Positions 1-45,907 are shown, counted from the first letter of the stretch. The stretch: 45,907 nucleotides of DNA from Thermoleophilia bacterium (GCA_041658445.1 JBBAAB010000001.1:1-45907), one strand, 5' to 3'. Made by a program: numbers and translations. The notes: a model not told the origin generated them from the sequence alone.

Positions 1-127
1 CTAGCGAACTCGCCGGCCAGCTCGCCATATGCGTCGCTTGGCCTGCCGCCGGGCTTGCCCGTATGTTCGGTGTACACCTCCACAAGAGCCGCGCGCGCCT
101 TAGAGGCCGCAAGCTCCTGCCGGCGTG
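1..127. repeat. Terminal direct repeat copy 1 (identical to 45781..45907); circular-closure overlap or terminal redundancy
   Basis: nt 1-127 read base-for-base identical to 45781-45907. Confidence 0.95.
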
Positions 128-317
128 CGTTGAGCTGGCCGGCACGCTGGCTGTCGCCTCTCATAATCCCCGTATTGGGAGCATAACCCGGGAGGAAGTG
201 TCCCTTACTGTCTCTGGGCATGAAGTGAGGATCAACGATAATAGGCCCTGCCGGGGAATTGGAGGTCTGGTCCGTGTCCTCGGTAGGTCTGGGCGCCTGC
301 GTGTCTTCGGTTGCCAT
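1..317 (-). CDS. 5' part of a wrap-around gene that continues 45780->45603; hypothetical, possibly small terminase or DNA-binding protein
   Basis: ATG at 317-315 is in frame with ORF 45603..45863 through the repeated segment. A promoter lies immediately upstream. The function is only a guess from its packaging-side position next to an HNH gene. Confidence 0.55.
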   Translation of the reverse strand, partial: MATEDTQAPRPTEDTDQTSNSPAGPIIVDPHFMPRDSKGHFLPGYAPNTGIMRGDSQRAGQLNARRQELAASKARAALVEVYTEHTGKPGGRPSDAYGELAGEFA

Positions 318-323
318 AGATGC

Positions 324-352
324 AGTCTACTCCTATTATGTCTAGTTGTCAA
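324..352 (-). promoter_or_regulatory. sigma70-like promoter giving a leaderless start at 317
   Basis: Sense strand reads TTGACA(352-347)-17 nt-TAGACT(329-324)-6 nt-ATG(317). Confidence 0.45.
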
Positions 353-786
353 GCCCACAGGGGCAATTGTTCGCCGTCGTCGTCTGGTATCAGCAACTCC
401 TCGTCAAGACCCTTGACGCTGGCAAGTGCAGCCACCAGTGCATCTACCCTTCGCTTGTCTGCCCGCGCACCCTTTGTCCTCTCACCCACAAGCTCCCGAA
501 ATAGGGCAAAGTCGCTCTTCTTCTTTGCGCGCAGCGGGTACTTGTCAAACAGCCTCACAATGGCCACAAGATCAGGGTGGCGGTAGAACCGAAGCCAGGC
601 GCCGCCGTTAGACTTGGTTAGCCGACCAAATCCGAGCAGGCGACGTATCTCGGCCAAAATGGGCCAGTCGTCCTCTCTCAGGTGAAGGGTAAACGACAGC
701 GTTATGCCGTTTCCGCTGGGGTATGCAGAGAAACAGCCCTCGCCGTCAGTAAATCCAGCCAGCCAATGTCCGAATTCGTCGTCCAT
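349..786 (-). CDS. LAGLIDADG-family homing endonuclease (single-motif, free-standing)
   Basis: N-terminal WLAGFTDGEGCF motif; 145 aa, a typical size; basic C-terminal half. Confidence 0.8.
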   Translation of the reverse strand: MDDEFGHWLAGFTDGEGCFSAYPSGNGITLSFTLHLREDDWPILAEIRRLLGFGRLTKSNGGAWLRFYRHPDLVAIVRLFDKYPLRAKKKSDFALFRELVGERTKGARADKRRVDALVAALASVKGLDEELLIPDDDGEQLPLWA

Positions 787-850
787 GCGCCCTCCGTCTC
801 CTTTACATTATACACCCGAATCTCTAATCCAACGTTCTAGGTTGTTCTGC

Positions 851-878
851 TTGACTTCCGCTAGAATGGGAGCATACT
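851..878 (+). promoter_or_regulatory. sigma70-like promoter for the plus-strand module 954-1940
   Basis: TTGACT(851-856)-16 nt-CATACT(873-878). It shares CTTGACTTYCSCTAGAATGRG with the promoter at 7658-7686. Confidence 0.4.
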
Positions 879-953
879 CTAATCAGACCTTACCAGGGAC
901 TTCTAGCGGAGTCCAAAGCCCAAGATACAGTCTGGGCCACAAGGAGAACGAAC

Positions 954-1217
954 ATGACCACCAACGCAACGCACACACCAGGACCGTGGAAGGCACAAAT
1001 CCGCAAGGTCGGCAGCCATGTAACAGGACCCTCCGGGTTCGCAGTCGCCCAAGTGGGCAAGGACGACGACGCCCGCCTGATATCCGCCGCACCCGAACTG
1101 CTGGCCGCCGCCCGCTATGCACTCATAACTCTGCGGATGGCTTGCGAGCACTTCCACGAGAAACCGGATGCAATCGGAGAACTTGAGTCTGCCATCAAGA
1201 AGGCCGAGGGCACATGA
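954..1217 (+). CDS. Hypothetical small phage protein (TPGPW ... ARLISAAPELL motifs)
   Basis: AAGGAGAA RBS 6 nt upstream of the ATG; ATGA overlap with the next gene. Confidence 0.7.
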   Translation: MTTNATHTPGPWKAQIRKVGSHVTGPSGFAVAQVGKDDDARLISAAPELLAAARYALITLRMACEHFHEKPDAIGELESAIKKAEGT

Positions 1218-1402
1218 CCGCCGTACCCCCACCCACGCTTTGCCCCAACACCAGCAAGGACATCATGTATTGCCCCTGCCAACGATGCGCCGACCACTGG
1301 CGCGCATGGGCAAAGGAAGCCGTCAAGCCGACCGTTGAATGGATACTTAGCGATACATCGGAGGACAAGAATTGTACGTTGGCGCCTGAGGGTATCAAAT
1401 GA
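1214..1402 (+). CDS. Hypothetical Cys-containing small protein
   Basis: ATGA start/stop coupling on both sides. Confidence 0.6.
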   Translation: MTAVPPPTLCPNTSKDIMYCPCQRCADHWRAWAKEAVKPTVEWILSDTSEDKNCTLAPEGIK

Positions 1403-1611
1403 CACCCTGCATTGACCCCCTGGACTGCGCAATTCGGACCATGCCGTACAAGATTAGAATCGGCAACCGAGTACTGGAGTATGACCCTCTCACAAGACTT
1501 ACACGAGAGATAACGCGTATTCCCAAACAAGAAGACAAGGGCTGGTACTTAGCTGACGGCCACTATCATTATGGCACTACCGTGGACTTGAAGCAGAGTC
1601 CGCACCCATAA
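1399..1611 (+). CDS. Hypothetical protein
   Basis: ATGA coupling with the upstream gene. Confidence 0.6.
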   Translation: MTPCIDPLDCAIRTMPYKIRIGNRVLEYDPLTRLTREITRIPKQEDKGWYLADGHYHYGTTVDLKQSPHP

Positions 1612-1625
1612 GGAGTCTGAGCAAC

Positions 1626-1940
1626 ATGACCAACCTCAAGGCCAGCATCCTCCTCTACCTGCTCCTCTGCGTCCAGGCAGCCGACTGGGGCACTACGGTA
1701 TGGATCATGTCCTTTGGGGGCGTTGAGGCCAACCCCATCATGGCGCCCCTGTTCGCCCTCTCCCCCTGGGTTGCCATCCTGCCCAAGCTTGCCATCGTAG
1801 CCGGCGTGACGCTGCTCTACCTGGCCGCCCGCAAGCAAGATAGACCTCTGGTTATGTGGGGCGTCGCCGCATCCGTCCTTGTGTCCATGCCGCCCGTAGT
1901 CTGGAACCTGATCCAGCTTTGGAATGCCGGGCTTATCTAG
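1626..1940 (+). CDS. Small multi-pass membrane protein (DUF5658-like: DWGTT...EANP)
   Basis: TAAGGAGTCTGAGC RBS context; three hydrophobic segments. Confidence 0.65.
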   Translation: MTNLKASILLYLLLCVQAADWGTTVWIMSFGGVEANPIMAPLFALSPWVAILPKLAIVAGVTLLYLAARKQDRPLVMWGVAASVLVSMPPVVWNLIQLWNAGLI

Positions 1941-2156
1941 CCCAACGGATGCGAGCTAAACTGCAATGCCGAGGGCGGCATAGGGGCACCCGTCGGCGTG
2001 CAACTTGCGCATCTCGAAGTATTCCGCCGTCGATGCCTGGGTACAATTCGGCCAGCAGAATCGGCAGGCGTGTACGTCCCCGTCCCACCAAGCCATTTCC
2101 AAAAGACGCATAGCCTCTAGCCGCCTGGCGTTGTCAGTTTCAGCGACTTGTTGGGC
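1940..2156 (-). repeat. attC-like site b4 (217 bp, long translated loop)
   Basis: Sense strand: GCCCAAC-AAGTC-GCT[G]AAACTG[A]C ... G CAGTTT AGC-TCGCATCC-GTTGGGC. AAACTG/CAGTTT covary. Confidence 0.7.
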
Positions 2157-2258
2157 GGCGTCGAGCCAATCAGCAAACTTCACAGCATGCACATGAATGT
2201 CGGGATCGCCCCGTTCCGAAAGATACTGCCTAAGCAAATCTCTATACCTGCCCATCAT
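1956..2258 (-). CDS. Cassette ORF b4, hypothetical Cys/His-rich protein
   Basis: GGAGAA RBS; the ORF runs through the attC arm and ends at the conserved TAG in the 3' arm (..IAV*). Confidence 0.65.
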   Translation of the reverse strand: MMGRYRDLLRQYLSERGDPDIHVHAVKFADWLDAAQQVAETDNARRLEAMRLLEMAWWDGDVHACRFCWPNCTQASTAEYFEMRKLHADGCPYAALGIAV

Positions 2259-2275
2259 TTCTCCTTCGGGCGACC

Positions 2276-2486
2276 GCCCAACGAGCTAAACTGCGAGCCG
2301 CCGTGCCATACAGGCTGGCTTCGGGCAACGATCATCGTAGGTTTGACACCCACAGTCTGGGCATGTCTTCAGGCGGCGCCCGCCGTGTGCGGCCAACTCC
2401 AATTCGCAGCCAGCAAGATGCCCGTTCTGGAACCCACACTCGGGGCAAATACTGAAGGCGGCGTCAGTTTCAGCGAGTTGTTGGGC
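2276..2486 (-). repeat. attC-like site b3 (211 bp, long translated loop, short 3' spacer)
   Basis: Sense strand: GCCCAAC-AACTC-GCT[G]AAACTG[A]C ... G CAGTTT AGC-TC-GTTGGGC. Confidence 0.7.
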
Positions 2487-2750
2487 GGCCAAGTCGGCAA
2501 TCCAAGTGGTCTCGTTCCCGCGCATCATCGCCGTCACAACTATGTCGAAGGCCTCTTTGCATGCCGGGCACGTCATGGACTGCTGAAATCTTACCGGCCT
2601 CCAAGCTTCAGCGAGTTGTTGGGCGGCGACATCATCTAACAAGGCCAACAAAGGCAACACCGGTATCAGGGCATTCCGAGAGTGCCGCGCAAGTGCCCTC
2701 TCTGCCCGAGTGCGAATGTCATCCAGGCCCTTCTGTGTTACGTACTTCAT
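2286..2750 (-). CDS. Cassette ORF b3, hypothetical zinc-ribbon-rich protein (CPAC, CPECG, CPDCGC)
   Basis: GAGGGAAC RBS; contains an orphan attC 5' arm plus the b3 arm in frame (AAQQLAEA.. twice). Confidence 0.65.
   Translation of the reverse strand: MKYVTQKGLDDIRTRAERALARHSRNALIPVLPLLALLDDVAAQQLAEAWRPVRFQQSMTCPACKEAFDIVVTAMMRGNETTWIADLAAQQLAETDAAFSICPECGFQNGHLAGCELELAAHGGRRLKTCPDCGCQTYDDRCPKPACMARRLAV
2603..2630 (-). repeat. Orphan attC 5' arm (R''+L'' only) inside ORF b3
   Basis: Sense strand: GTCGCCGCCCAACAACTCGCTGAAGCTT, with no partner 3' arm before the next 5' arm. Confidence 0.6.
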
Positions 2751-2776
2751 CGTTCCCTCATTCGGGCGTGGCGACC

Positions 2777-2865
2777 GTCCAACGGATGTGAGCTAAGCCG
2801 CTCGCCGAACCCCATCATTCGTGTCGTTGTCGCCAACAAGAGTCGGCTTCAGCGAGTTGTTATAC
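2777..2865 (-). repeat. attC-like site b2 (89 bp)
   Basis: Sense strand: GTATAAC-AACTC-GCT[G]AAGCCG[A]CTC ... GAG CGGCTT AGC-TCACATCC-GTTGGAC. Confidence 0.8.
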
Positions 2866-3044
2866 GGCAGCGCCCCGTGCTTGCGCGCATACCTATACTC
2901 GGCGTAATGAGATAGAACCACGTGCTCCCGCACGTCGTCTTCCCATCCCTCAAACCCACAGAGCACACATGAGCCCTTGGTCTGAAGCAGGCCGCCGTGC
3001 AGATTCTTAGCAATCCAAGCATCAATCCTCTGTCTGATCCTCAT
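2793..3044 (-). CDS. Cassette ORF b2, hypothetical protein
   Basis: AGGAGGAA RBS; ends at the TAG of the attC 3' arm (..RAA*); reads the 5' arm in a different frame (YNNSLKPT). Confidence 0.65.
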   Translation of the reverse strand: MRIRQRIDAWIAKNLHGGLLQTKGSCVLCGFEGWEDDVREHVVLSHYAEYRYARKHGALPYNNSLKPTLVGDNDTNDGVRRAA

Positions 3045-3066
3045 GCCATTCCTCCTGTGCGCTGCC

Positions 3067-3187
3067 GTATAACGGATGCGAGCTAAGCTGCCGGGCCTTT
3101 GGTGGCGAGGTAAGACGCCTTTGACTCGGCATCCCTCAATAGCCCCGCCAGCCGCTTGGTGCGGTCAGCTTCAGCGAGTTGTTCGAC
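3067..3187 (-). repeat. attC-like site b1 (121 bp)
   Basis: Sense strand: GTCGAAC-AACTC-GCT[G]AAGCTG[A]CCG ... CGG CAGCTT AGC-TCGCATCC-GTTATAC. Confidence 0.8.
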
Positions 3188-3310
3188 GGCGACTTCATCG
3201 CGCAGGCGCAGAAACTCCGCCGTGACCCGTTGTATGTCATCGACTCGCAGCGTGGCAACGAGCGCTATGCACCAAATCTTGTCGCGGCTTGCATCTCTAG
3301 GATCAATCAT
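3083..3310 (-). CDS. Cassette ORF b1, hypothetical protein
   Basis: GGAGGGAAC RBS then ATG at 3310; ends at the attC TAG (..PAA*). Confidence 0.65.
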   Translation of the reverse strand: MIDPRDASRDKIWCIALVATLRVDDIQRVTAEFLRLRDEVAVEQLAEADRTKRLAGLLRDAESKASYLATKGPAA

Positions 3311-3333
3311 CGTTCCCTCCATTCAGGCGTGGC

Positions 3334-3354
3334 GACCGTCGAACTAGTGATTCG
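3334..3354 (-). other. Array-leading junction AATCACTAG|TTCGACGGTCGCC (attI-like site or promoter remnant)
   Basis: The same 11-mer AATCACTAGTT heads array A at 5770-5791. Confidence 0.4.
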
Positions 3355-3388
3355 GCGTCAAAATCGACGCATATCTCGCTTCTCGGGC

Positions 3389-3700
3389 CTACTTTGCAAC
3401 TTGCTTTGTCGTCGCGTTCGCCCGCCTTCGCAGGGCGTCGTATGCCTCTTGTCCCATTCTCTCAATCACCCACTCGTAGAACAGCGTCGGATTCCCATGC
3501 GCCCACAGGTGGCACGCAAAACAGAGAGAGTAAGCGTTGTCTTCGTCCCACCTTACTGATTTGTTCCTGCGGCTGAACACATGGGCACAGTGCAAACCAG
3601 CATGTTTTGGCCCATAATACTTGTGACACCTCTCGCAGCCATGCCCGGCCCTGGCACGAATGAAGTCCGAGAACTCGGCGTCCCTCTTGTCGCGCTTCAG
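3389..3700 (-). CDS. NinG/Rap-like zinc-finger HNH-type protein; start codon unresolved
   Basis: FSDFIRAR..GCERC..HCAHVFSRR..N..LCFACH pattern. The conserved N-terminal part lies upstream of the first ATG/GTG/TTG (TTG at 3595). The frame is open only to 3736, with only CTG candidates (3700, 3724). Confidence 0.55.
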   Translation of the reverse strand: MKRDKRDAEFSDFIRARAGHGCERCHKYYGPKHAGLHCAHVFSRRNKSVRWDEDNAYSLCFACHLWAHGNPTLFYEWVIERMGQEAYDALRRRANATTKQVAK

Positions 3701-4005
3701 CGGTCTATCTCCCTCTGAAGCCAGCGAGGCAAATCCTCAAAGTCCTGATTTGGATCGCGCCACCACTCAATGAGTCTCCACACCAGCCCTGCCGCCTCCG
3801 CCAAGTCGTCCTCCGTCTCGGCCAACTGGCGGCGGGCGTCGTCGCGCTCGCGACGCGCCCACCACGCCTCACTCTTCAGGGCCCATCGTTCATATTCATC
3901 CATCTTCTCACTCCTTCCCCGCGTCCCGGTGCGGACAATGGTCTGCGAGTTGTCTACATGCGTGAACGCACGGTAGCCCTCAATCTCTGTCCGGTGGTCA
4001 TCCAT
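3697..4005 (-). CDS. Hypothetical Trp/Arg-rich protein
   Basis: AGGAGG RBS 7 nt upstream of ATG 4005; follows attC a5. Confidence 0.6.
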   Translation of the reverse strand: MDDHRTEIEGYRAFTHVDNSQTIVRTGTRGRSEKMDEYERWALKSEAWWARRERDDARRQLAETEDDLAEAAGLVWRLIEWWRDPNQDFEDLPRWLQREIDR

Positions 4006-4622
4006 CTTTCGCCTCCTGGCGACCGCCCAACGAGCTGAGCTGCCGGGCCTTTGCAGCGGCAACCGCTGAACATGCACAGCTTCTCTATGGGATGGTGCAC
4101 CGATCTGGGGTGCCCGGCATTGTCAGTTTCAGCGACTTGTTGGGCGGCGGGCTTCTCCTTGAGGGCGGCGCGGGCTTCGTCCAGTCTCATCAGCGCCAAT
4201 GTCGTCTCCGAGGCGTGGGGCCCAAGGTCGGACTCCAACTCCATGTAGGATTCAGCGGCCTTGCGGAACTTCCCCAGCGCCTCGATGCGGGCCACTAGCC
4301 AATCAACCTCCGTCAGCATTACTTCGTATGTGCCCGGCAGGGCCAGGCGATCCTTGATTGTTTGCAGGTTCATGGCTTCTCCTTTGAGGGCGGCACGAAG
4401 GGCGTCGAAGTCCTCTTCGGGAACCGCCACCCATCTGCCGATGAACTTCGGGTCATCGTAGATGATGACACTGCGCCTCAATTGTGCCACCTCCTCCAGC
4501 GCCTCGATGCGGGCTTCCAAGGCGGATACGGCAGCAACGGCCATCCACTTATGATTGCTCTCCCCAGCTACCTCGGCAGCATTGAAACAGTTTGCGACAA
4601 ACTCCGCTATCTTTGGTATCAT
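3954..4622 (-). CDS. Hypothetical coiled-coil protein with a C-terminal Cys/His module; reads through attC a5
   Basis: ATG at 4622. The usual TAG in the attC 3' arm is CAG here, so the ORF runs 24 codons further and overlaps the next gene start. Confidence 0.55.
   Translation of the reverse strand: MIPKIAEFVANCFNAAEVAGESNHKWMAVAAVSALEARIEALEEVAQLRRSVIIYDDPKFIGRWVAVPEEDFDALRAALKGEAMNLQTIKDRLALPGTYEVMLTEVDWLVARIEALGKFRKAAESYMELESDLGPHASETTLALMRLDEARAALKEKPAAQQVAETDNAGHPRSVHHPIEKLCMFSGCRCKGPAAQLVGRSPGGERWMTTGQRLRATVRSRM
4025..4145 (-). repeat. attC-like site a5 (121 bp, Cys/His-module loop, short 3' spacer)
   Basis: Sense strand: GCCCAAC-AAGTC-GCT[G]AAACTG[A]C..GCCGGGC ... GCCCGG CAGCTC AGC-TC-GTTGGGC. 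Confidence 0.7.
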
Positions 4623-4625
4623 CCT

Positions 4626-4913
4626 CTACTCCTTCCCTGCGAGGGCGGCAATGTACGCGTCCTTCTCGTCCGCCGTCATGCCCTCATACGGGTTGCAAGC
4701 CGGGCCATTCCCCTCGACTTGTTGGGCGGCGAGAGCCTCCGGAGAGCCGCAATACGGGCAGAACGACACGGAATCCTGCATCATCCAGTCTGATGCCTCA
4801 GCCTCTTTGCAGGAGGCCACAAACGGGAGGGCCAACACCACATAGCCCATGTCGCAGTTGCCACACACCACAACCGGGAACTCATACGGGATGTGCAATT
4901 TCATCGTTGTCAT
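4626..4913 (-). CDS. Cassette ORF a4, hypothetical Cys-rich protein with an orphan attC R'' relic
   Basis: GAGGAGAG RBS; an internal CGCCGCCCAACAAGTCGAGG relic (4714-4733) is translated as AAQQVE. Confidence 0.6.
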   Translation of the reverse strand: MTTMKLHIPYEFPVVVCGNCDMGYVVLALPFVASCKEAEASDWMMQDSVSFCPYCGSPEALAAQQVEGNGPACNPYEGMTADEKDAYIAALAGKE

Positions 4914-4939
4914 TCGCTCTCCTCACGGGCGTGGCGACC

Positions 4940-5065
4940 GCCCAACGAGCTGAGCTGCCGGACTCACCACTCGCCAGGCATATCGTCAATGTAGCCCTCA
5001 TCAATGACGTGTTCAAGCATCTGCTTTGCAATTGAAGGCCGGTCAGCTTCAGCGAGTTGTTCGAC
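4940..5065 (-). repeat. attC-like site a3 (126 bp)
   Basis: Sense strand: GTCGAAC-AACTC-GCTGA[A]GCTG[A]CCGG ... CCGG CAGC TCAGC-TC-GTTGGGC. Confidence 0.75.
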
Positions 5066-5182
5066 GGCGAGGCGTCTGGCAACTCTAAACCCAGCCATAA
5101 ACCCGACGCGATGCTGATCTCGCCACCCGCGGCGCCCGGCCTGGCGCTTCCACCATTTGTCAAACTCTTCTGTTGCGGGCAT
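4964..5182 (-). CDS. Cassette ORF a3, hypothetical protein
   Basis: ATG at 5182; reads through the 5' arm (AVEQLAEAD) and stops in the loop. Confidence 0.6.
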   Translation of the reverse strand: MPATEEFDKWWKRQAGRRGWRDQHRVGFMAGFRVARRLAVEQLAEADRPSIAKQMLEHVIDEGYIDDMPGEW

Positions 5183-5205
5183 TTCGCACTCCAGTTAGTG
5201 GCGCC

Positions 5206-5335
5206 GTTGAACGGATGCGAGCTAAGCTGCCGGGCCTTTGCAGCGGCATCCGCTGAACATGCACAATTTCTCCGTGGGATGATGCAATGATGGGGGGTGC
5301 CCACATTGGCAGGCCCGGTCAGCTTCTTGTTGGGC
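5206..5335 (-). repeat. attC-like site a2 (130 bp, Cys/His-module loop)
   Basis: Sense strand: GCCCAAC-AAG-AAGCTG[A]CCGGGCC ... GGCCCGG CAGCTT AGC-TCGCATCC-GTTCAAC. Positions 5210-5325 are a perfect inverted copy of 10798-10913. Confidence 0.8.
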
Positions 5336-5449
5336 GGCGAGACCGCGGGCATAGCCCGCCTCGAATCCCTTGCGAGAATCAAACTTGTTTGCGTCCTGAT
5401 CCACCTCGGGACTCAGCCACCACTTCTCGAACTCGCTCATCTCGGGCAT
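5222..5449 (-). CDS. Cassette ORF a2, hypothetical protein ending in module RACQCGHPPSLHHPTEKLCMFSGCRCKGPAA
   Basis: GGAGACGAGG RBS; ends at the attC TAG. Confidence 0.65.
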   Translation of the reverse strand: MPEMSEFEKWWLSPEVDQDANKFDSRKGFEAGYARGLAAQQEADRACQCGHPPSLHHPTEKLCMFSGCRCKGPAA

Positions 5450-5472
5450 TTCCTCGTCTCCTTCGGGCGACC

Positions 5473-5561
5473 GTCCAACGGATGTGAGCTAAGCCGCTCG
5501 GCTAACCCTCTTCGACCTGGAACCGCGCTTGGGCCGAGTCGGCTTCAGCGAGTTGTTAGCC
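5473..5561 (-). repeat. attC-like site a1 (89 bp)
   Basis: Sense strand: GGCTAAC-AACTC-GCT[G]AAGCCG[A]CTCGGC ... GCCGAG CGGCTT AGC-TCACATCC-GTTGGAC (15 bp stem, 2 bulges). Confidence 0.85.
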
Positions 5562-5752
5562 CGCTCACCACGGGCAATGTACCGATACGAAATTCCTTCC
5601 TCAAACTTGTAGAGGAAGCATGCGCGCCCGAGACCGTCCACATAGCCAACCTCGGTGGCGTTCTCTGAGACAACGCGGGCAACCTCACCCTTGCTATTGC
5701 CAAAGGCGGAGACCAGGAACTCGATTCTGGGAGCGTCAGTCACCTTCGCCAT
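5489..5752 (-). CDS. Cassette ORF a1, hypothetical protein
   Basis: GAGAGAGGG RBS; ends at the attC TAG (..RAA*). Confidence 0.65.
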   Translation of the reverse strand: MAKVTDAPRIEFLVSAFGNSKGEVARVVSENATEVGYVDGLGRACFLYKFEEGISYRYIARGERANNSLKPTRPKRGSRSKRVSRAA

Positions 5753-5769
5753 TCAAGACCCTCTCTCGT

Positions 5770-5791
5770 TGCGGGCTAACTAGTGATTATA
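5770..5791 (-). promoter_or_regulatory. Array-A leading junction TATAATCACTAG|TTAGCCCGC (perfect -10 hexamer abutting the first cassette; attI-like?)
   Basis: Sense TATAAT at 5791-5786, with the cassette boundary 6-7 nt downstream. No good -35. The AATCACTAGTT 11-mer is shared with 3334-3354. Confidence 0.4.
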
Positions 5792-5827
5792 CGGCCGCTG
5801 TGTAAACTTGCGCGCCGAGTGTGCAAA

Positions 5828-6458: not shown

Positions 6459-6464
6459 AACTAG

Positions 6465-6492: not shown

Positions 6493-6534
6493 GCCCCTCT
6501 TTTAGCGTCTGTTGATGGTGGGCAGTAGGCGCAG

Positions 6535-6858: not shown

Positions 6859-6864
6859 GCCGTA

Positions 6865-40136: not shown

Positions 40137-40788
40137 GAATGTCCTCCAGCCTCACGCGCGGGTAGGCGCGTAACTCCCCGCCAATTCCCGCGTTGGCAAT
40201 CTTGACGCCCCGCTTTTGGCACTCCTGCATTGCAATACCGTGGGCCTCTTCTAACACCCGGTTCCACCTTCTTGCCTGTTCGGCCTTGTAGGCGTCTGGG
40301 GGGAGGTATCCTCTAATGAACCAGTTCTGATTGTCGGCGTCTCTGTAGCCGAGGTCACACCCAACCACGTAGAGTTCGTCGTATCCCATACGTACGGCCA
40401 ACTGGATGGCCATAAGAGCCGACCCCCCAAAACGACATAGTTGCGGGAGGTGCCACGGCCCGCCCCATTGTTCTGGTTGGGTCGAGTCCATTGGTGACAT
40501 GTGCTCACAGACGACCTCTCGGTGTAGATTTGGACGATCCGGAACGTCGCATTCTATGTCGTCTCGGATGAAACACTCCTCGCCCCAGTCCAGGTGTTTT
40601 ACGATGTCCTCTTGCCAGACCCCTTGACTCTGCCTCGTTCTGTCGAACGCACACCAGTATGTCGGGCGCCACCGGGTTTTAGGATAGAGAAGATGTATCC
40701 TGTTCAGCCCGAACGTTACTTCGTCCGCGAGTCTATCCATCGGAGTTCTGTTCAGGCTTGGCCCATTGCCAATTACGAAGCAGCGCAC
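40129..40788 (-). CDS. GNGPSL glycosyltransferase paralog A (CstII/Maf-like)
   Basis: VRCFVIGNGPSL (GTG start, GGAGGAAG RBS), YVVGCDLGY. Confidence 0.6.
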   Translation of the reverse strand: MRCFVIGNGPSLNRTPMDRLADEVTFGLNRIHLLYPKTRWRPTYWCAFDRTRQSQGVWQEDIVKHLDWGEECFIRDDIECDVPDRPNLHREVVCEHMSPMDSTQPEQWGGPWHLPQLCRFGGSALMAIQLAVRMGYDELYVVGCDLGYRDADNQNWFIRGYLPPDAYKAEQARRWNRVLEEAHGIAMQECQKRGVKIANAGIGGELRAYPRVRLEDILG

Positions 40789-41450
40789 ACTTCCTCCAGA
40801 GAAGCCCGTGGATAGACCTCCAGCGCCCCGCCAACGCCGGCGTTCATAATCACAATGCCGCGGTCGATGCACTCCCTGTTCGCAAGCTCGTGCGCGTACG
40901 CCTGCGCTCCGGTTAGATACGCCGCCCACTCGGGGTCGTAGGGGCGGAAGTTGAAGTAGTCCTCAGAGAAGTGGTTGTTCTCCCCCGGACGGTAAATCAG
41001 GTCACACCCCAACAGATAGACTTCGTCAAACCCCATCGTGACGGCCAGTTGAATTGTCGTCAGGACGGAACCTCCAAAGACGCACAGTTGCGGCAGGTGC
41101 CACGACTTCGGCCACCACTCCCCATGCCCAATTCTCGTCCCGTGCTCCATGCACAGGTCCATCTTTTCAAACCTTGCGGTCGGCTGAATGTCCCAAACCC
41201 CCATCCTGGTAAAGTGCCTCGGGGCGATGAAACAATGCTCCCCGAGGTCCCGGTGCAGGAAGAACAACTCCGCCCACTCGTCTATCGGCATCTGCAAGTC
41301 CCTGTCTGTGCAGACCCAGTATGTTGGCCGCCACTTGGTTAGCGGGTAGATCAGATGGCATTGGTTGACGCCGAAGGACACCTCGTTGACCAAGAGATTC
41401 AGATTCGTCTTTGCCAGCGAAGGCCCATTCCCTAGAACGAAGCAGCGCAT
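40773..41450 (-). CDS. GNGPSL glycosyltransferase paralog B
   Basis: MRCFVLGNGPSL, YLLGCDLIY, ENNHFSEDY. Confidence 0.65.
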   Translation of the reverse strand: MRCFVLGNGPSLAKTNLNLLVNEVSFGVNQCHLIYPLTKWRPTYWVCTDRDLQMPIDEWAELFFLHRDLGEHCFIAPRHFTRMGVWDIQPTARFEKMDLCMEHGTRIGHGEWWPKSWHLPQLCVFGGSVLTTIQLAVTMGFDEVYLLGCDLIYRPGENNHFSEDYFNFRPYDPEWAAYLTGAQAYAHELANRECIDRGIVIMNAGVGGALEVYPRASLEEVCAAS

Positions 41451-42151
41451 ACTTCCTCAAGGCTGACCCTCGGGTAGACATCCAAAGACCCGCCGACCGT
41501 GGCGTTGAACACCCAGACCCCGTGCTCCTTGCACCACCTGGCAATCAGATCGTGCATCGCACTCCCCAACTCGTTGTTGAACTTCGCTCTGTCTTCAGTG
41601 TGTATCTCCAAGTTGGCCTCGTAAGCACGGTCGAAGTGGTTCGTGTCTTCGTCCCCCTCTAGTACGTGCCAGTCCAGATCACAACCAACCAGATACAGTT
41701 CGTTGTATCCCATCTTGATTGCTTGCTGCATCATCGGCCCCATGCCGGTTCCGAGTTTGCACAGAACCCCGTCCTCTTTCGGGAAGCACCACTCTTCGGG
41801 CCAGTCCTTCCCTGGAGAGGCGCAGAGGTGGTCAACGTGGAACTGCCACGGGTGAACCCACTCCGGCAGTTCCTCCAGCCACGCGACTGGGTGCGACCGC
41901 CACTTCCCAAGAAGCTGTTCGCATATGTCAGCCCTGACATAGCACTCCTCCCCGGAGACAATGTGGGAGATTAGGGCCTCGCGGTCATCCTCTCTTTGGG
42001 GGAGATCGGACCACATGAAGTACGTCGGCCTCCAGTTGGTCTTCGGATACATAAGGTGAATGCGGTTCATCCCGAAGGACGGTTCTCCCGCAATCATGTT
42101 TAGATTGGTCCGGTTCAGGCTCGGACCGTTCCCCACAAGGAACATTCTCAT
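41432..42151 (-). CDS. GNGPSL glycosyltransferase paralog C
   Basis: MRMFLVGNGPSL, YLVGCDLDW, DTNHFDRAY. Confidence 0.65.
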   Translation of the reverse strand: MRMFLVGNGPSLNRTNLNMIAGEPSFGMNRIHLMYPKTNWRPTYFMWSDLPQREDDREALISHIVSGEECYVRADICEQLLGKWRSHPVAWLEELPEWVHPWQFHVDHLCASPGKDWPEEWCFPKEDGVLCKLGTGMGPMMQQAIKMGYNELYLVGCDLDWHVLEGDEDTNHFDRAYEANLEIHTEDRAKFNNELGSAMHDLIARWCKEHGVWVFNATVGGSLDVYPRVSLEEVCAASF

Positions 42152-42675
42152 GCGCGTTCAAACACCGCCATGTTGCCGCTCATGGTTACGAGCCGCCAGT
42201 CGCTTTCCGTCTTGGCGTTCTCGACGGCTTTCTCCACCGGGCTTCCCTCGTTGCAGTCATGGAACAGGATGAACCTCTTGGTGATGTCCTTTACGTTGTT
42301 CCAGTCGTTTATTGGAGCATCGCCCTCGTGGTCTCCGTCGATGAACGAGACAACAGGTTTGATGTCTCCAGCGGGAAACGGGTGCGAGTTCTGGTAGAAC
42401 ACCTTGTACGGAAGCCCGAGCCCAAGCATCAGCTTCTCGATCTCTGGCTTCCAGCCAAGCCCGTTCTCAATGCCGTAGATACTGCCGCCCTGCTTCAGAT
42501 GCCGCTTGATGAGCCCGGCGAAGGCAAGACTTCCGCCGCGGTTCACGCCGATCTCAAGATAGTCTCCGTCGCCCGCCTCCAAGATGCACGCCTCCAGGGC
42601 GAACTTCTCCTCGGGGGCCATGAGCCACCCCTTTGTTCCGTTACGGTAGAGTTCGTTCAGGCCGTCCAGGATCAT
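42148..42675 (-). CDS. Class I SAM-dependent methyltransferase (Methyltransf_24/TylF-CmcI-like), paralog 1
   Basis: GDGDYLEIGVNRGGS (SAM-binding loop) and FIDGDHEGD. Confidence 0.65.
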   Translation of the reverse strand: MILDGLNELYRNGTKGWLMAPEEKFALEACILEAGDGDYLEIGVNRGGSLAFAGLIKRHLKQGGSIYGIENGLGWKPEIEKLMLGLGLPYKVFYQNSHPFPAGDIKPVVSFIDGDHEGDAPINDWNNVKDITKRFILFHDCNEGSPVEKAVENAKTESDWRLVTMSGNMAVFERA

Positions 42676-43208
42676 TTGCGCCTCTCAAACAGGGCCATGT
42701 TTCCCGTCCCGATAATGTAGTTCCATGCGGGGTCCTTCTGGCATACTTCCTCGACGGCCCTCTTTACTCCTGGGTGGGTGTGGAAGTCATGTAGCAGGAT
42801 GAACCTCCCCGTTCTGGCACTAAGGTTTCTCCAGTCTTTCACGACCCACTCGCGCGCGTGGTCTCCATCTATCAGGGCAACGACGGGTCTCAGGTCTCCC
42901 GCGGGCCACGGGTCAGAGTTGGCCTCGATAGCCTCGATCTCTACATTGAACTCTGCCGCGTGCTTCACAACCAGGTCGAACCCCGAATGCTTGTTCTGGA
43001 AGTTGTCTATCCCGTATATTTTCCCAGACTGTCCCAATCGTCTCTTGAGTAGACCAACGAAGATGGCGCTTCCGCCTTGTTGAATCCCAATTTCCAGGTA
43101 GTCCCCATCGCCGGCCTCTAAGACGGCGCACTCTAGGGACATCACGTCGTCGGGCTCCATCGTGAACCCGTAGAACCCCAGCTTGTCCTTGACCTCGTGG
43201 AAGATCAC
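42672..43208 (-). CDS. Class I SAM-dependent methyltransferase, paralog 2 (GTG start inferred by alignment)
   Basis: GDGDYLEIGIQQGGS and LIDGDHARE. The start was chosen so that the length matches paralog 1. Confidence 0.55.
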   Translation of the reverse strand: MIFHEVKDKLGFYGFTMEPDDVMSLECAVLEAGDGDYLEIGIQQGGSAIFVGLLKRRLGQSGKIYGIDNFQNKHSGFDLVVKHAAEFNVEIEAIEANSDPWPAGDLRPVVALIDGDHAREWVVKDWRNLSARTGRFILLHDFHTHPGVKRAVEEVCQKDPAWNYIIGTGNMALFERRK

Positions 43209-43326
43209 CTGTTCGCCTTCCACGCCTTCTTGAGGTTCTTCATTCGGGTCTTCGCAATCTCCTCTTGCCTCTTTCGTTCTGCCGCCTGAACTGCTTGCGC
43301 CTTCTGTAGGTTCGCGTCCCTTACTC

Positions 43327-43521
43327 CTAGATGTCGATTTCTGATCGTAGTCTGAATAGAACGGTATGCAGTGTCTCGTACCAGTCGGCCAGCCGCTTTC
43401 CTGGAATCCTGGCGGTGTACGAATCCTCAGTAAATGCAAAGCCCTCGGTGGACTTCATTTCATTCAACACCTCCCAGGCTTTGGAAACCAGCTTTTCGTC
43501 CGAGTCGATTTTTTCAGTCAT
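43327..43521 (-). CDS. Hypothetical small protein
   Basis: GAGGAG RBS; ATGA coupling. Confidence 0.5.
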   Translation of the reverse strand: MTEKIDSDEKLVSKAWEVLNEMKSTEGFAFTEDSYTARIPGKRLADWYETLHTVLFRLRSEIDI

Positions 43522-43863: not shown

Positions 43864-43870
43864 GACAGGC

Positions 43871-43990
43871 ATGAGCGAATACACGTTCCTAGACTTCCTG
43901 GTAACTTGTGCCGAGGCCGCCATGTTCATCGTCCTCCTGCTGGCCGTCGTTGGGGGCATTGGCTTCCTAGGCAACTTCGGGAGGCACTAA
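43871..43990 (+). CDS. Small single-TM protein (39 aa)
   Basis: Hand translated; hydrophobic core; TAATG coupling with the next ORF. Confidence 0.4.
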   Translation: MSEYTFLDFLVTCAEAAMFIVLLLAVVGGIGFLGNFGRH

Positions 43991-44112
43991 TGGACATCAT
44001 CCAAGAGTCCCTCGAACACCCAGGACTAATCGTCTCAGTCGGCCTCTTCTGCATCGGCGCATTCATGGGGGCTTGTTTCATGTCGGCCTACCTCACTTGG
44101 CTTTGGCAATAG
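43990..44112 (+). CDS. Small single-TM protein (40 aa)
   Basis: Hydrophobic core LIVSVGLFCIGAFMGACFM. Confidence 0.4.
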   Translation: MDIIQESLEHPGLIVSVGLFCIGAFMGACFMSAYLTWLWQ

Positions 44113-44278
44113 CCAGCAACACCCCAAGAACGGCCAAGTACCCCATAAGCCTGATCCAAAGATACTGCCTTACCGCCCAATCCGCCCAGGCGTCATCCGG
44201 AATCCGACGACCTCTTTTGTCGTACCTGGCCCACGGGACACCAGGAGCGGCAAACTGGTACTTGTGGCTGTCGTTCAT
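44093..44278 (-). CDS. Small protein with a C-terminal TM
   Basis: ATGA coupling with the upstream ORF. Confidence 0.45.
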   Translation of the reverse strand: MNDSHKYQFAAPGVPWARYDKRGRRIPDDAWADWAVRQYLWIRLMGYLAVLGVLLAIAKAK

Positions 44279-44403
44279 ACTAGCCCGCACTCCCTTGGGG
44301 CTGGCTCGGCCCACTCAACAAGGGGTTCAGCATCCCTCTTCAGGCGTGCCGTGGACCCGAACTCCGGTAGTTTGGGCCGCCACATTCCATCCGTGCGGAC
44401 CAT
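44275..44403 (-). CDS. Possible small protein (start uncertain)
   Basis: Its stop is coupled (ATGA) to the next gene, but the RBS is poor. Confidence 0.3.
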   Translation of the reverse strand: MVRTDGMWRPKLPEFGSTARLKRDAEPLVEWAEPAPRECGLV

Positions 44404-44437
44404 GCTCCCGTATCTTGGATTGTCCCCCGGCTTCAGC

Positions 44438-44833
44438 TCAACTGTAAACCCCGGCCCGGTACAACTCGGACACAATCCCTCTCTGTATCTGCCCCGCCCA
44501 GAATGCAATGTCCTCTTCTATGGCCCGCGCCCCCGCCTGATCTCCCCGAAACTTGTGCCGGAATATCTTCGGCGCATTCCGCATTAGCCAGCAAGCAGCA
44601 TGGACGCTCTCGTGTGCCACAACCTCCGTCCCCAAACACCCCCTGCTGAAGTGGATATTGGAATACTTGCTTCCCATATCCACCAATGTCGCCCTGCCCC
44701 ACCGACCCTTTGCCCCATCTCTGGTAACAGCATCCCACATCTGCTCGCGGTTGGCCCAGACATACACGCGAACCTTGCGCCGGGTGCCCGTAGCCGACAG
44801 CGAGAACCGGTGAACAGGCTTCGTTTTCTTCAT
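44438..44833 (-). CDS. Putative zinc metallopeptidase-like protein (HESVH)
   Basis: HExxH motif VAHESVHAACW. Confidence 0.5.
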   Translation of the reverse strand: MKKTKPVHRFSLSATGTRRKVRVYVWANREQMWDAVTRDGAKGRWGRATLVDMGSKYSNIHFSRGCLGTEVVAHESVHAACWLMRNAPKIFRHKFRGDQAGARAIEEDIAFWAGQIQRGIVSELYRAGVYS

Positions 44834-45372
44834 GGCTTACCCCCGCCACCGGCGAATTGCACCGGGGCAGAACTTCTCATGTCGCATACGAATTGGTATC
44901 TGTCCTCGTCCTGAAGCCAAGATCGTAGTTCTTTCGAATTTTTGGAATTATTGCACTTCGGGCACGCCGGGACAATGTTCTCCTTGGTGTACCCGCCGCC
45001 CGACTTGACCGGAACAACGTGATCCTGGTCAACGGCCGTCAATACAGCATCGCAGTAGGCGCAGCGATTGCCGAAGGCGGCTAGCGTATCCAGCCAGCCC
45101 GCGGCGGTCAGCGTGGCCGGAAGCCCGCGCACAGCAGCCTTGCGGCGCTTTGCCTTGGCCCGGCCATTTGCCGCCTGGCGGGCAGCGTAGCCAGGACTGG
45201 CGGCAAGCAATGCCCTGTAGCTGGCCCGCACCGTTGCCCGCCTACACTCCAAACATGCCCGCTTGAACTTGGGAATTTCCGACCCGCAGCCACAATATCT
45301 GGGCGGACGCACGCGGTTGGCCGTGCGCCACCTTGCTCTTGCCCGCCTGTCATCTGCATTTTTATATGGCAT
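44830..45372 (-). CDS. HNH endonuclease
   Basis: DQDHVVPVKSGGGYTKENIVPACPKCNNSK plus an N-terminal Cys-rich region. Confidence 0.8.
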   Translation of the reverse strand: MPYKNADDRRARARWRTANRVRPPRYCGCGSEIPKFKRACLECRRATVRASYRALLAASPGYAARQAANGRAKAKRRKAAVRGLPATLTAAGWLDTLAAFGNRCAYCDAVLTAVDQDHVVPVKSGGGYTKENIVPACPKCNNSKNSKELRSWLQDEDRYQFVCDMRSSAPVQFAGGGGKP

Positions 45373-45602
45373 CAGACTATTTTACACCATCATTTTTGAA
45401 CGAGCAAGGGAACCCCACCAACCACAGACAAACCATCAACCAACGTGCCACCCAGGTACGCCTTTACATAACTCCCCGCCCGCAAGCACGCAGCCAGCCG
45501 GCCTGACAGTAGCGCGCCCAGCCCCACATGCAGCCAGCCGCAGGCGTGCGCAATGGGACGGCGCACAGCAGGCAGGCTAACGCATGTTAACGCAGGCATG
45601 CG

Positions 45603-45907
45603 CTACCCACTCTCCTCGTCCCCGTAGGCTCTCACCAGCTCAGGACCTATGTTGATCTGTACTGCTACAGTCGGCATGCTTGCCTTGTCGGCCTCTGGCA
45701 GCATCTTTGCAAGCCGGAGGGCGAACTTGCCTGCCTCGACACCCTCTCGTGGCTTATTCATGGCGTTGGCTAGCGCACTTCTAGCGAACTCGCCGGCCAG
45801 CTCGCCATATGCGTCGCTTGGCCTGCCGCCGGGCTTGCCCGTATGTTCGGTGTACACCTCCACAAGAGCCGCGCGCGCCTTAGAGGCCGCAAGCTCCTGC
45901 CGGCGTG
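45603..45907 (-). CDS. 3' part of the wrap-around gene begun at 317
   Basis: Same frame through the 127-nt repeat; stop at 45603. Confidence 0.55.
   Translation of the reverse strand, partial: RRQELAASKARAALVEVYTEHTGKPGGRPSDAYGELAGEFARSALANAMNKPREGVEAGKFALRLAKMLPEADKASMPTVAVQINIGPELVRAYGDEESG
45781..45907. repeat. Terminal direct repeat copy 2
   Basis: Identical to nt 1-127. Confidence 0.95.

Follow-up and report, generated by a model that had tools for sequence, protein, structure and literature searches.

Phage CALINs, that is, clusters of attC sites and cassettes in phages whose genomes have no integron integrase, have already been described with 2–3 attC sites each, examples being Tetrasphaera phage TJE1, Polaribacter phage P12002L and Pseudoalteromonas phage PH101 (Qi, Rajabal, Ghaly, Tetu & Gillings 2023, Front Microbiol 14:1091391; PMC9892861). 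The same authors proposed that such CALINs depend on bacterial IntI, and they also described prophages with captured pieces of chromosomal integrons (PMC9892861). The general idea of integrase-less phage CALINs using bacterial IntI is thus already published, small versions having come first in 2023, and the present case is a large one. The window, by which we mean the entire 45,907-nt stretch of DNA analysed here, resembles these examples in its combination of attC clusters and cassettes without an integrase, and in methyltransferase-type cargo, which we found in a related phage contig (L141). Unlike them, it has 12 complete and about 5 partial sites, with roughly 14 cassettes and 17 ORFs, in two opposed arrays within divergent early operons, and its relatives show cassette-level polymorphism. 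TJE1 is unrelated to the present phage and does not share its attC subtype.

The sedentary chromosomal integrons that we compared (a roughly 200-kb array with intI in uncultured Bacteroidetes OY970334.1, and Acidobacteriota JAOTZA010000003.1) have in common with the phage the attC core TCGCT[N]AAGC[Y]G[A]C ... C[R]GCTT-AGC ... GTTRRRY with the bulges at the same places, cassettes of one ORF that all point the same way, and attC sites that are homogeneous within an array. They differ in that an intI (TIGR02249) lies next to the array and that the cargo is bacterial (toxin-antitoxin pairs and DUF families, for example), whereas the phage arrays have no intI or attI, phage-type cargo, a conserved cassette leader and attC loops that are often coding. 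The likeness extends, position by position, to the class 1 aadA1 attC (the 59-base element of In2/Tn21 on plasmid R100) over TAAC-AAYTC-G(C/T)T-[bulge]-AAGCCG-[A]-stem ... stem-CGGCTT-A(G/A)C-spacer-GTTRRRY. The differences lie in the first bulged base (G in the phage top strand, C in aadA1), the loop (35–200 nt in the phage, 4 nt in aadA1) and the 3′ spacer (8 or 2 nt versus 6 nt).

Two opposed arrays in a closed phage genome

In agreement with the sequence-only reading, which had taken the contig to close on itself through a 127-nt overlap, the two terminal segments are exactly identical, and an independent ENA assembly (ERZ27247322, k141_646634; 45,921 nt with a 141-nt overlap, 100% identical to the window in every part fetched) resolves to the same 45,780-nt circle. 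Pfam matches include SU10_MCP (E 1.2e-48), Terminase_6C, a tail fibre with CBM_4_9 and a GH25 lysin. As a closed replicon that carries genes for capsid, terminase, tail and lysis, the phage is a member of the Caudoviricetes, and the window represents the entire genome of this uncultivated tailed phage. NCBI places the contig inside a 'Thermoleophilia bacterium' MAG, which is the sole hint at the host; the earlier guess of a host among GC-rich Proteobacteria found no support.

The two arrays (Table 1) make up ~13% of the genome. The 5′ and 3′ half-site motifs are each present in 12 copies, where shuffled sequence leads one to expect 0.00 and 0.04 respectively, and every copy falls within 1953–5557 (-) or 10786–12303 (+): the arrays are real, and chance comes nowhere near accounting for them. 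The cassettes are short units without a promoter, each consisting of the leader TTGGRCGGTCGCC with its RBS, one or two small ORFs, and an attC laid out as R″, L″, variable loop, L′ and R′. Many of the ORFs cross the attC in frame (motif AAQQxAEAD), and coding therefore accounts for some of the conservation of sequence; in site W1d, loss of the TAG of L′ lets ORF 4622–3954 read through. In array 2 the first element is an R′ (G|TTGGGC), fused with the stop codon that ends gene 9946–10626. The region between the arrays contains sigma-70-like promoter matches at 7805–7832 (+), 6892–6865 (-) and 6492–6465 (-), and a 241-aa protein (7855–8580) that, among 5.8 billion proteins, matches itself alone. 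The cassette-borne NinG/Rap ORF shows no canonical start codon and has a homologue in another relative (L135).

Table 1. Features of the window, with scores from the covariance model (CM) of bacterial attC sites
Feature	Position	Strand	Remarks
Terminal overlap	1-127 = 45781-45907	none	assembly signature of a circular or terminally redundant genome; unique length 45,780 nt
Cassette array 1	1940-5790	-	9 cassettes, 11 ORFs, 8 complete attC plus orphan half-sites; transcribed leftward, away from the central region
attC W1a, 89 nt	5473-5561	-	R″ GGCTAAC, R′ GTTGGAC; CM 53.6 bits, E 4e-12
attC W1b, 130 nt	5206-5335	-	6-nt deletion in L″; coding loop (CxC...CxC tail); missed by CM
attC W1c, 126 nt	4940-5065	-	short 3′ spacer; CM 33.4 bits, E 1e-6
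attC W1d, 121 nt	4025-4145	-	TAG of L′ lost; CM 29.9 bits, E 1e-5
NinG/Rap-type junction-specific endonuclease, cassette-borne	3389-3736	-	phrog_5034 E 1.9e-20, PF05766 E 7e-6
Orphan R′ (GTTCGAC then GGTCGCC)	3338-3344	-	begins next cassette, without L′
attC W1e, 121 nt	3067-3187	-	CM 48.2 bits, E 1e-10
attC W1f, 89 nt	2777-2865	-	CM 49.9 bits, E 4e-11
attC-like W1g, 211 nt	2276-2486	-	long loop coding, Cys-rich; missed by CM
attC-like W1h, 217 nt	1940-2156	-	final site of array 1; missed by CM
Central early region	5791-10625	none	between the arrays; small genes diverge from about 7.6-7.85 kb
Cassette array 2	10626-12738	+	5 cassettes and 1 remnant, 6 ORFs, 4 complete attC
attC W2a, 136 nt	10782-10917	+	coding loop; CM 49.9 bits, E 4e-11
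attC W2b, 88 nt	11131-11218	+	stop codon TAA within R″; CM 43.8 bits, E 2e-9
attC-like W2c, 259 nt	11360-11618	+	inside ORF 11243-11602; missed by CM
attC W2d, 89 nt	11978-12066	+	CM 49.5 bits, E 5e-11
Half-site, R″-L″ only	12284-12307	+	joined directly to cassette leader and RBS

Identity of the attC sites

An attC is bounded by inverted core sites, R″ (RYYYAAC) on its 5′ side and R′ (GTTRRRY) on its 3′ side; between them the L″/L′ stem is imperfect, with bases bulging out at fixed positions, a central spacer that stays unpaired and a terminal loop that varies. It is as folded single strands that integron integrases recombine such sites. In 12 of 12 complete sites R″ ends in AAC and R′ begins with GTT; R′ is strictly GTTRRRY in 8 of them, the others deviating by one base (GTTATAC, three times, and GTTCAAC). 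Phage sites, bacterial sites and the R100 aadA1 attC could be aligned column for column, with both bulged bases at identical positions. Pairing holds in 89.7% of the cells of this alignment and in 94.4% of those in the L helix, as against 19–44% in slid controls, and 9 of the 12 L-helix pairs show compensatory changes. Minimum-free-energy fold z-scores of the sites are modest (-0.8 to -3.0).

A covariance model trained on bona fide attC sites is the principle behind IntegronFinder and the HattCI plus Infernal combination. Our model, built on 13 bacterial sites plus aadA1 and on no phage sequence at all, recovers 8 of the 12 window sites (E 4e-12 to 1e-5), all within the arrays and on the cassette strand, with no further window match at E≤0.1; those it misses are the long-loop sites W1g, W1h and W2c (211–259 nt) and W1b, whose L″ is damaged. 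In TJE1 it matches two sites as well, both at the beginning of the genome, the position given by Qi et al. for the CALIN of that phage (PMC9892861). Conversely, a 23-nt L′-R′ pattern derived from the phage has matches in at least 118 bacterial MAG stretches, with up to 7 sites per 8 kb. The bacterial arrays found in this way adjoin genes scoring 383–486 bits on the TIGR02249 integron integrase profile (cut-off 265), and the matching 5′ half-site is also present in 237 of the 246 bacterial sites. As judged by sequence comparison, the phage attC sites are genuine, and in sequence and structure they form one family with the attC of aadA1 and with those found in large chromosomal integrons of soil and freshwater bacteria.

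The hairpins might be read differently, as RNA elements of the early transcripts (terminators, RNase III-type processing sites or translational regulators) whose likeness to attC is convergent: they sit at gene 3′ ends within operons, their stems covary, and attC sites are themselves thought to be weak terminators (PMC9892861). We regard this as extremely improbable. None of the 15 terminator-like matches (a GC-rich stem, then a T tract) in 1–17800 falls on an attC, their number equals the shuffle expectation, the sites lack T tracts, and an Rfam search gave no match. Moreover, the sequence fits bona fide attC sites beside intI genes, both bulge positions included, and the complementarity between a cassette's own ends (below), which lie 250–900 nt apart, is not a property of a local RNA hairpin.

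Crossover signature and cassette variation

With a crossover at G|TT, the TTRRRY... with which a cassette opens is part of the attC that closes it. Over its 13 nt, the extended R″ of a site is, on average, complementary to the R′ at its own cassette start at 10.2 of 13 positions (12–13 of 13 in five cases), compared with 8.3 for the adjacent R′ and about 8.2 for a random R′; in 0 of 20,000 permutations did the own-end sum reach the observed value. The same held for independent metagenomic arrays and relatives (10.5 versus 8.9; again 0 of 20,000). Individual examples are W1f, whose extended R″ GCTGCCGTATAAC pairs with the R′ at its own cassette start (3073–3061) at 13 of 13 positions, W2d (13 of 13 with 11612–11624) and W2b (12 of 13). 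The orphan R′ of array 1 is complementary at every position to the R″ belonging to its own cassette (GTCGAAC, 3181–3187), the run extending to 9, and the R″ of the array 2 half-site, which looks like a deletion derivative, matches its own cassette start at 12 of 13 positions. We take this own-end complementarity to be the mark of G|TT crossover and of circular cassettes.

The relatives tell a similar story. The sequence-only reading had counted invariant content across relatives among the signs against cassette exchange, but the content varies: in related metagenomic phages the locus is occupied by other cassettes, L002 shares the attC family while most of its cassettes are different, and in L141 the homologue of a window array 1 cassette sits in the array 2 position. 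L139 and L141 are 100% identical over 929 nt, all 8 of their differences lie in the loop of one attC, and the cassettes upstream of that attC are unrelated. In orthologous cassettes, R″ and R′ differ in a compensatory way, with GTATAAC/GTTATAC in the window and GCCTAAC/GTTAGGC in L141.

Part of this variation could have another origin. The 117-nt L″-loop-L′-GTT segment of W1b (5210–5326) recurs as a perfect inverted copy in W2a (10797–10913), the identity ending at the GTT of R′, and this copy common to both arrays is also evidence of homologous recombination or gene conversion. Extended to the arrays as a whole, such a process would make the attC sites inherited relics, with present shuffling, duplication and loss driven by general phage or host functions acting on 60–130-nt repeats and with no IntI now involved. 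Half-sites and hybrid sites (12284–12307, 4721–4727 and 2618–2624) and orphan R′ sites (3344 and 10626) agree with this, as do a Logan assembly broken at the repeats and the presence on the phage of the cassette NinG/Rap junction endonuclease and, from PHROGs searches, of a repair-exonuclease-like gene and an HNH/EndoVII gene. Homologous exchange of near-identical L″-L′ modules, however, predicts neither an R″ that matches the R′ one cassette upstream better than its neighbour nor the compensatory R″/R′ change between the window and L141, and we consider it unlikely as the full account, although homologous recombination may well act alongside IntI.

The cassette genes bear on where the arrays came from. 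They include phage-type genes (NinG/Rap, phrog_10733 and phrog_21631), zinc-ribbon proteins and a paralogous MPxxEFxxWW family, and L141 adds a DPPY methyltransferase-like gene. One cassette gene has homologues in other phages without any attC. Bacterial arrays of this attC family, about 0.7 Mb in all, contained no homologue of the phage cassette proteins, and neither did the closer bacterial-type arrays L132, L140, L142 and L144. Taken together, these comparisons so far point to a cassette pool common to phages rather than shared with the host.

They also weigh on the idea that the arrays are ready-made blocks, acquired from a bacterial chromosomal integron by illegitimate recombination and carried as passive cargo, so that the crossover signature was made in bacteria. 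The attC family is indeed abundant in bacterial chromosomal arrays, metagenomic arrays of bacterial type have nearly identical 5′ half-sites (with HicA/HicB, DUF1801 and RibD_C cassettes), and the prophages of Qi et al. (PMC9892861) provide a precedent. This origin is nevertheless quite improbable, given the phage-type cargo, its lack of counterparts in the sampled bacterial arrays, and the placement of two arrays in opposite orientation within conserved early operons. In addition, the leader common to most phage cassettes was not seen in the Bacteroidota arrays examined, and related phages with an identical backbone differ by single cassettes.

Probable source of the recombinase

The sequence-only reading had seen no integrase in the closed genome and had called for a profile search for a divergent recombinase among its ORFs. 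In a six-frame Pfam scan of the circularised genome (stop-to-stop ORFs of at least 120 aa, excluding one pack of shadow ORFs opposite a 1917-aa gene), there was no Phage_integrase, Resolvase, Recombinase, transposase or RVT match at E≤0.01, and PHROGs found no recombinase among the cassette ORFs and the other non-structural ORFs. An HMM of 7 bacterial IntI plus IntI1, run with --max against all 719 six-frame segments of at least 40 aa, gave a best E of 1.6, as against 3.7e-24 for a distant Xer-like protein used as positive control. The region between the arrays contains no recombinase, and the related contigs likewise yielded no IntI in the parts that were fetched. The parts of a complete integron (intI with an adjacent attI and a Pc promoter) are likewise not assembled here: an IntI-like ORF is absent, and the arrays start with a bare R′ or with no recognisable site. 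With 8 and 4 complete sites spaced 226–958 nt apart, no intI near them and none anywhere in the closed phage genome, the arrays are CALINs in the strict sense, IntegronFinder requiring two or more neighbouring attC sites and no intI in the vicinity; the sequence-only reading had noted the resemblance.

A recombinase of the phage's own, too divergent to recognise and hidden among the hypothetical early proteins, could in principle act on the attC-like sites: most small early ORFs have no Pfam or PHROG match, the 241-aa protein matches itself alone, and no replication genes were recognised either. It is very unlikely, since no tyrosine or serine recombinase, DDE or RT signal appeared at any level tried, even with the unfiltered IntI profile, the fetched parts of the related contigs contain no IntI, and in bacteria attC sites like these are served by canonical IntI.

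Because the phage lacks an integrase, the enzyme must act in trans, and the cassettes were probably moved by a bacterial integron integrase. The attC identity, the crossover signature, the cassette polymorphism and the missing integrase make IntI supplied in trans by the host the best explanation of how the phage CALINs were built; we consider it reasonably likely, and we infer both the host enzyme's role and its action during infection. Integron-type recombination at the G|TT of R′, by way of circular cassette intermediates, would have placed and reshuffled the cassettes, the simplest source of enzyme being the IntI of the infected host acting on single-stranded phage DNA. The recombination events could be ancient rather than ongoing. 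The proposal that the phage exchanges cassettes with its host through host IntI stands in part: neither of the signs that would speak against it, a hidden recombinase or invariant cassettes, was observed, but no cassette is shared with the bacterial arrays sampled. The cargo (the NinG/Rap endonuclease, the zinc-ribbon proteins and the methyltransferase-like gene of L141) would serve early or anti-defence functions. In line with a bacterial enzyme, IntI1 recombined 5 of 6 attC sites from virulent phages (Qi et al. 2023, PMC9892861).

Two cassette arrays in a closed phage genome

The window (45,907 nt, 58.5% G+C) starts and ends with the same 127 nt, and contig k141_646634 of ENA assembly ERZ27247322 (45,921 nt, with a 141-nt overlap) is 100% identical to it over all fetched parts. 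An identical circle of 45,780 nt comes out of two assemblers with different k-mer sizes; the set of genes is therefore complete, as an earlier reading of the sequence alone had claimed. A Logan assembly of SRR8449812 contributes a 36.5-kb contig of this genome, broken at window positions 2799 and 12038, each inside an attC site.

The window carries tailed phage genes: an SU10-type major capsid protein (E 1.2e-48), a terminase, a tail fibre with CBM_4_9 and a GH25 lysin. The capsid protein is <30% identical to that of every GenBank phage, and no close cultured relative was found (megablast of 25 kb, zero matches). Searches of IMG/VR with single proteins (the 226-aa protein and the terminase) found no relatives, and exact-sequence look-up of the 226-aa and 207-aa proteins returned no record. 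Two candidate relatives were rejected: L001, a chance pattern match within a gene of an unrelated phage, and Tetrasphaera phage TJE1, which has zero tblastx similarity and no attC subtype in common with the window. This complete phage genome has been binned as bacterial in the NCBI MAG 'Thermoleophilia bacterium' (locus tags WC935_00095 and WC935_00140), and the Thermoleophilia label on two window proteins only shows that the contig was placed in an actinobacterial MAG.

Two half-site motifs occur 12 times each, against 0.00 and 0.04 expected from shuffles, and all copies are confined to 1953-5557 (minus strand) and 10786-12303 (plus strand). R' is usually followed by GGTCGCC, an RBS and an ATG. 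The two arrays hold about 14 cassettes and take up ~13% of the genome. Between them is a central region of 4.8 kb, from which both point outwards; its small genes likewise diverge, from ~7.7 kb, and it contains sigma-70-like promoter matches. This places the cassettes within two divergent early operons. The two copies of AATCACTAGTT may mark points of entry into an array or be mini-sites that have collapsed.

Features of the arrays and of other regions of the window
Feature	Coordinates	Strand	Description
Array 1	1940-5790	-	8 complete sites, 9 cassettes, 11 ORFs
Array 2	10626-12738	+	4 complete sites, 5 cassettes and a remnant, 6 ORFs
R'' element			start of unit in cassette orientation; GCCCAAC, GCCTAAC, GTATAAC or GTCGAAC
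Spacer after R''			5 nt
L'' element			GCT-G-AAGCYG-A-stem, then loop
L' element			stem-CRGCTT-AGC, then 2- or 8-nt spacer
R' element			GTTGGRC, GTTAGGC or GTTATAC
Read-through ORFs (examples), array 1	5449-5222, 5182-4964, 3310-3083, 2750-2286, 2258-1956
Read-through ORFs (examples), array 2	10671-10901, 11243-11602, 12328-12738
117-nt perfect inverted repeat	5210-5326 (array 1), 10797-10913 (array 2)		L''-loop-L'-GTT
AATCACTAGTT, two copies	5780-5790, 3344-3354	-	each immediately before a cassette without upstream L'
NinG/Rap-like ORF	3389-3736	-	no ATG, GTG or TTG before the conserved region
ORF upstream of NinG/Rap-like ORF	3697-4005	-	its end is overlapped by the NinG/Rap-like ORF in a different frame
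LAGLIDADG homing endonuclease and HNH/endonuclease VII genes	349-786, 44830-45372	both -	free-standing mobile-type nucleases outside the arrays
Four paralogous genes with N-terminal GNGPSL motif, together with the genes grouped with them (region entries)	25969-26613, 40129-42151 (-), with 42148-43439 (-) and 25271-26125 (-)
Pfam MptE-like match among GNGPSL-motif genes	40132-40962
1917-aa protein	29867-35620		no Pfam match

In 8 of the 12 sites an ORF reads through R''/L'' in frame, giving the peptide AAQQ(L/V/E)AE(A/T)D, and stops at a TAG in L'; in these ORFs the attC loop (80-200 nt) codes for the C-terminal tail, which is often Cys-rich, several tails carrying CxC/CxxC. The two copies of the 117-nt repeat match perfectly up to the R' GTT, exactly where the identity ends. 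This points to recent exchange, and the repeat could allow inversion of the 5.5-kb central early segment.

Identity of the sites and the crossover signature

Judged from sequence, the window sites are attC sites, on five lines of evidence: bacterial counterparts, architecture, covariation, independent detection and lack of coincidence with terminators. A 23-nt L'-R' pattern from the phage matched at least 118 stretches in bacterial MAGs (labelled, among the matches listed, Bacteroidota, Ignavibacteriota, Acidobacteriota, Planctomycetota, Verrucomicrobiota and others), with up to 7 sites per 8 kb. The matching 5' half-site is present in 237 of 246 bacterial sites, and the integron-integrase genes at six of these loci score 383-486 bits on TIGR02249 (cut-off 265). 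The aadA1 attC (In2 on plasmid R100; checked in context), a class 1 integron site, aligns column for column with the phage and bacterial sites, both bulged bases being co-positioned. In a 31-sequence attC alignment, 89.7% of cells are paired (94.4% in the L helix), with compensatory changes in nine of 12 L-helix pairs; sliding the partners one to three columns as a control brought pairing down to 19-44%.

A covariance model trained on bacterial and aadA1 sites only, run with default filters, matched eight of the 12 window sites over their full length, with E from 4e-12 to 1e-5. These matches all lie inside the arrays and on the cassette strand, with no match elsewhere in the window at E<=0.1. 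In TJE1 the model picks out two sites, at the beginning of the genome, the CALIN location given by Qi et al. (2023). With filters off, a covariance search returned only local 30-bit matches, at four sites. The four sites that the model missed, those with loops >200 nt or a damaged L'', may be inactive. We rejected the alternative that the sites are intrinsic terminators, since zero terminator-like matches coincide with any site. Single-sequence folding gave weak z-scores (-0.8 to -3.0), and Rfam and tRNA scans found no match.

Among the bacterial loci, uncultured Bacteroidetes MAGs hold chromosomal arrays of ~200 kb (stretches L014-L120; OY970334.1 about 3,672,000-3,888,000, with an intI at 3,882,554-3,883,522) and >120 kb (CAWGZY010000005.1 1-128,000), the attC sites of both being highly uniform and about 150 nt long.

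Integron crossover takes place at G|TT in R', and the TTRRRY... at a cassette's start moves with that cassette's terminal attC and pairs with the cassette's own R'' in the circular form. We compared the 13 nt ending at each R'' with the own-start R', the adjacent R' and random R'. In the window and L002 (from a 44.8-kb IMG/VR contig), own-start complementarity averages 10.2 of 13 against 8.3 for the adjacent R', and 0 of 20,000 permutations reach the observed sum; five cases stand at 12-13 of 13, for example GCTGCCGTATAAC at 2859-2871 against GTTATACGGCAGC at 3073-3061. Nineteen cassettes from independent metagenomic arrays gave 10.5 against 8.9, again with 0 of 20,000 permutations. Orthologous cassettes keep the end pairing despite changes at both ends (TTATAC.../...GTATAAC at window 3072-2783, TTAGGC.../...GCCTAAC in the related contig L141). 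Neither local hairpins alone nor homologous recombination alone predicts this own-end pattern. Half-sites and orphan R' sites show that the arrays have been shaped by deletion and homologous recombination as well. What the signature in the sequence indicates is recombination of integron type, beyond mere sequence likeness.

Recombinase search, cassette cargo and related phages

Stop-to-stop ORFs >=120 aa from the six reading frames of the circularised sequence, except for one pack of shadow ORFs that face the 1917-aa gene, were searched against Pfam; no recombinase of tyrosine or serine type, no transposase and no reverse transcriptase came up at E<=0.01. PHROGs profiles, applied to the cassette ORFs and 39 other non-structural ORFs, recognised as nucleases only LAGLIDADG, HNH/EndoVII and NinG/Rap endonucleases plus one exonuclease, and no recombinase. 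We also trained an HMM on seven integron integrases of bacteria and the IntI1 of R100. Applied unfiltered to all 719 six-frame segments >=40 aa, it gave a best E of 1.6, and it found a distant Xer-like protein, the positive control, at 3.7e-24. As far as these sequence profiles reach, the genome thus has no integrase, as the sequence-only reading had held, and with the attC identity of the sites its description of a phage-borne CALIN stands. Recombination of IntI type is supported as well; that the enzyme is a host IntI, and that cassettes are exchanged with the host, we only infer, so that the sequence-only interpretation is supported in part.

An IntI profile scan of IMG/VR yielded at least 555 IntI-like loci, and among the best 80 none lies on a contig related to the window phage. 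The proteins of these 80 'viral' contigs (tblastn; L151-L230) are 47-62% identical to integron integrases: either complete integrons are common on viral or prophage contigs, or bacterial integron regions have been mis-called viral.

The phage cargo comprises a NinG/Rap junction endonuclease, phrog_10733, phrog_21631, zinc-ribbon proteins and a paralogous MPxxEFxxWW family, and looks phage-like. Cassette gene 11639-11968 has homologues in other phages (L146-L150), where they sit in early regions and have no attC beside them. The nearest bacterial half-sites are in an Acidobacteriota MAG (L008) and in short metagenome arrays (57-60% G+C), the latter with typical bacterial cargo (HicA/HicB, DUF1801, DUF6933, RibD_C), and no homologue of any phage cassette protein was found in the bacterial arrays compared. 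These three observations, phage-like cargo, attC-less phage homologues and no bacterial homologues, favour a cassette pool that circulates among phages; the exchange with the host's own integron that had been proposed is so far not supported.

The NinG/Rap-like ORF could be a frameshift, have a non-canonical start or be a pseudogene; its homologue in L135 has a normal start. The MPxxEFxxWW...GFxAGW N-terminal family is also present in L002 and L141. As a route to the host, the membrane-protein cassette of bacterial-type arrays was rejected, giving metagenome matches and one 'Chloroflexi' at 57% identity only; L145, a long contig from that search, has no site of the window's attC subtype.

Pattern scans recovered a small family of contigs with this subtype. 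L002 has at least 7 sites and cassettes mostly unlike the window's; one, set among other neighbours, is homologous to window 11243-11602. In L141 and L139 the array ends, in the array-2 position, at a gene 74% identical (aa) to its homologue 12979-13407 in the window; despite this, one L141 cassette is homologous (81% aa) to array-1 cassette 3044-2793, and the cassette after it has a DPPY methyltransferase-like ORF. L139 and L141 are 100% identical over 929 nt (two cassettes plus backbone), all 8 of their differences fall within the loop of one attC, and the cassettes upstream of that attC are unrelated. Thus, rather than being invariant, which would have spoken against exchange, cassette content is polymorphic on an otherwise identical backbone, with the boundary at an attC. 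The DPPY motif is typical of N6/N4 DNA methyltransferases; the 200-aa cassette protein with this motif (L141 414-1016) has no Pfam match at E<=0.001.

Known phage CALINs and genes outside the arrays

Screening 10,705 phage genomes, Qi et al. 2023 (PMC9892861) found 17 CALINs with at least 2 attC sites each, the TJE1 CALIN having 3 sites and 4 ORFs, and of six attC sites taken from virulent phages IntI1 recombined five; the concept of a bacterial IntI that serves a CALIN on a phage is therefore already published. The CALINs of the window are much larger, with ~14 cassettes in two arrays. The evidence added here consists of the own-end complementarity and of the polymorphism of cassettes between related phages.

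We consider it possible, rather than probable, that an uncultivated phage lineage has its own phage-adapted cassette pool, shuffled by host IntI in infection, as a routine early-gene diversification engine and not an occasional passenger. Cassettes would be adapted to phages by a leader and RBS directly after R' and by phage-type cargo, the variable loop of attC would be co-opted as coding sequence for C-terminal, often Cys-rich tails, and host IntI would shuffle cassettes during infection between phages and between the two early operons. Integrons are seen as bacterial devices, and phage attC clusters were first reported only in 2023, from small examples; in this genome and its relatives, cassette arrays are a sizeable and variable share of the early region. 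If host IntI acts on infecting DNA, phages could swap accessory, possibly anti-defence, genes site-specifically, and integron cassettes could travel from one bacterium to another in viruses. The sites at 5473-5561, 2777-2865, 11131-11218 and 11978-12066, all short and well defined, could be synthesised and tested directly, without phage culture.

In window 1-17700 of this 45.8-kb phage, Pfam and PHROGs recognised no replication gene, be it for a DNA polymerase, a primase, a helicase or another function. The GNGPSL-motif genes adjoin two paralogous ORFs, one a Methyltransf_24 match, and a GT2-like glycosyltransferase gene is located elsewhere; together these look like a glycan- or virion-modification cluster.
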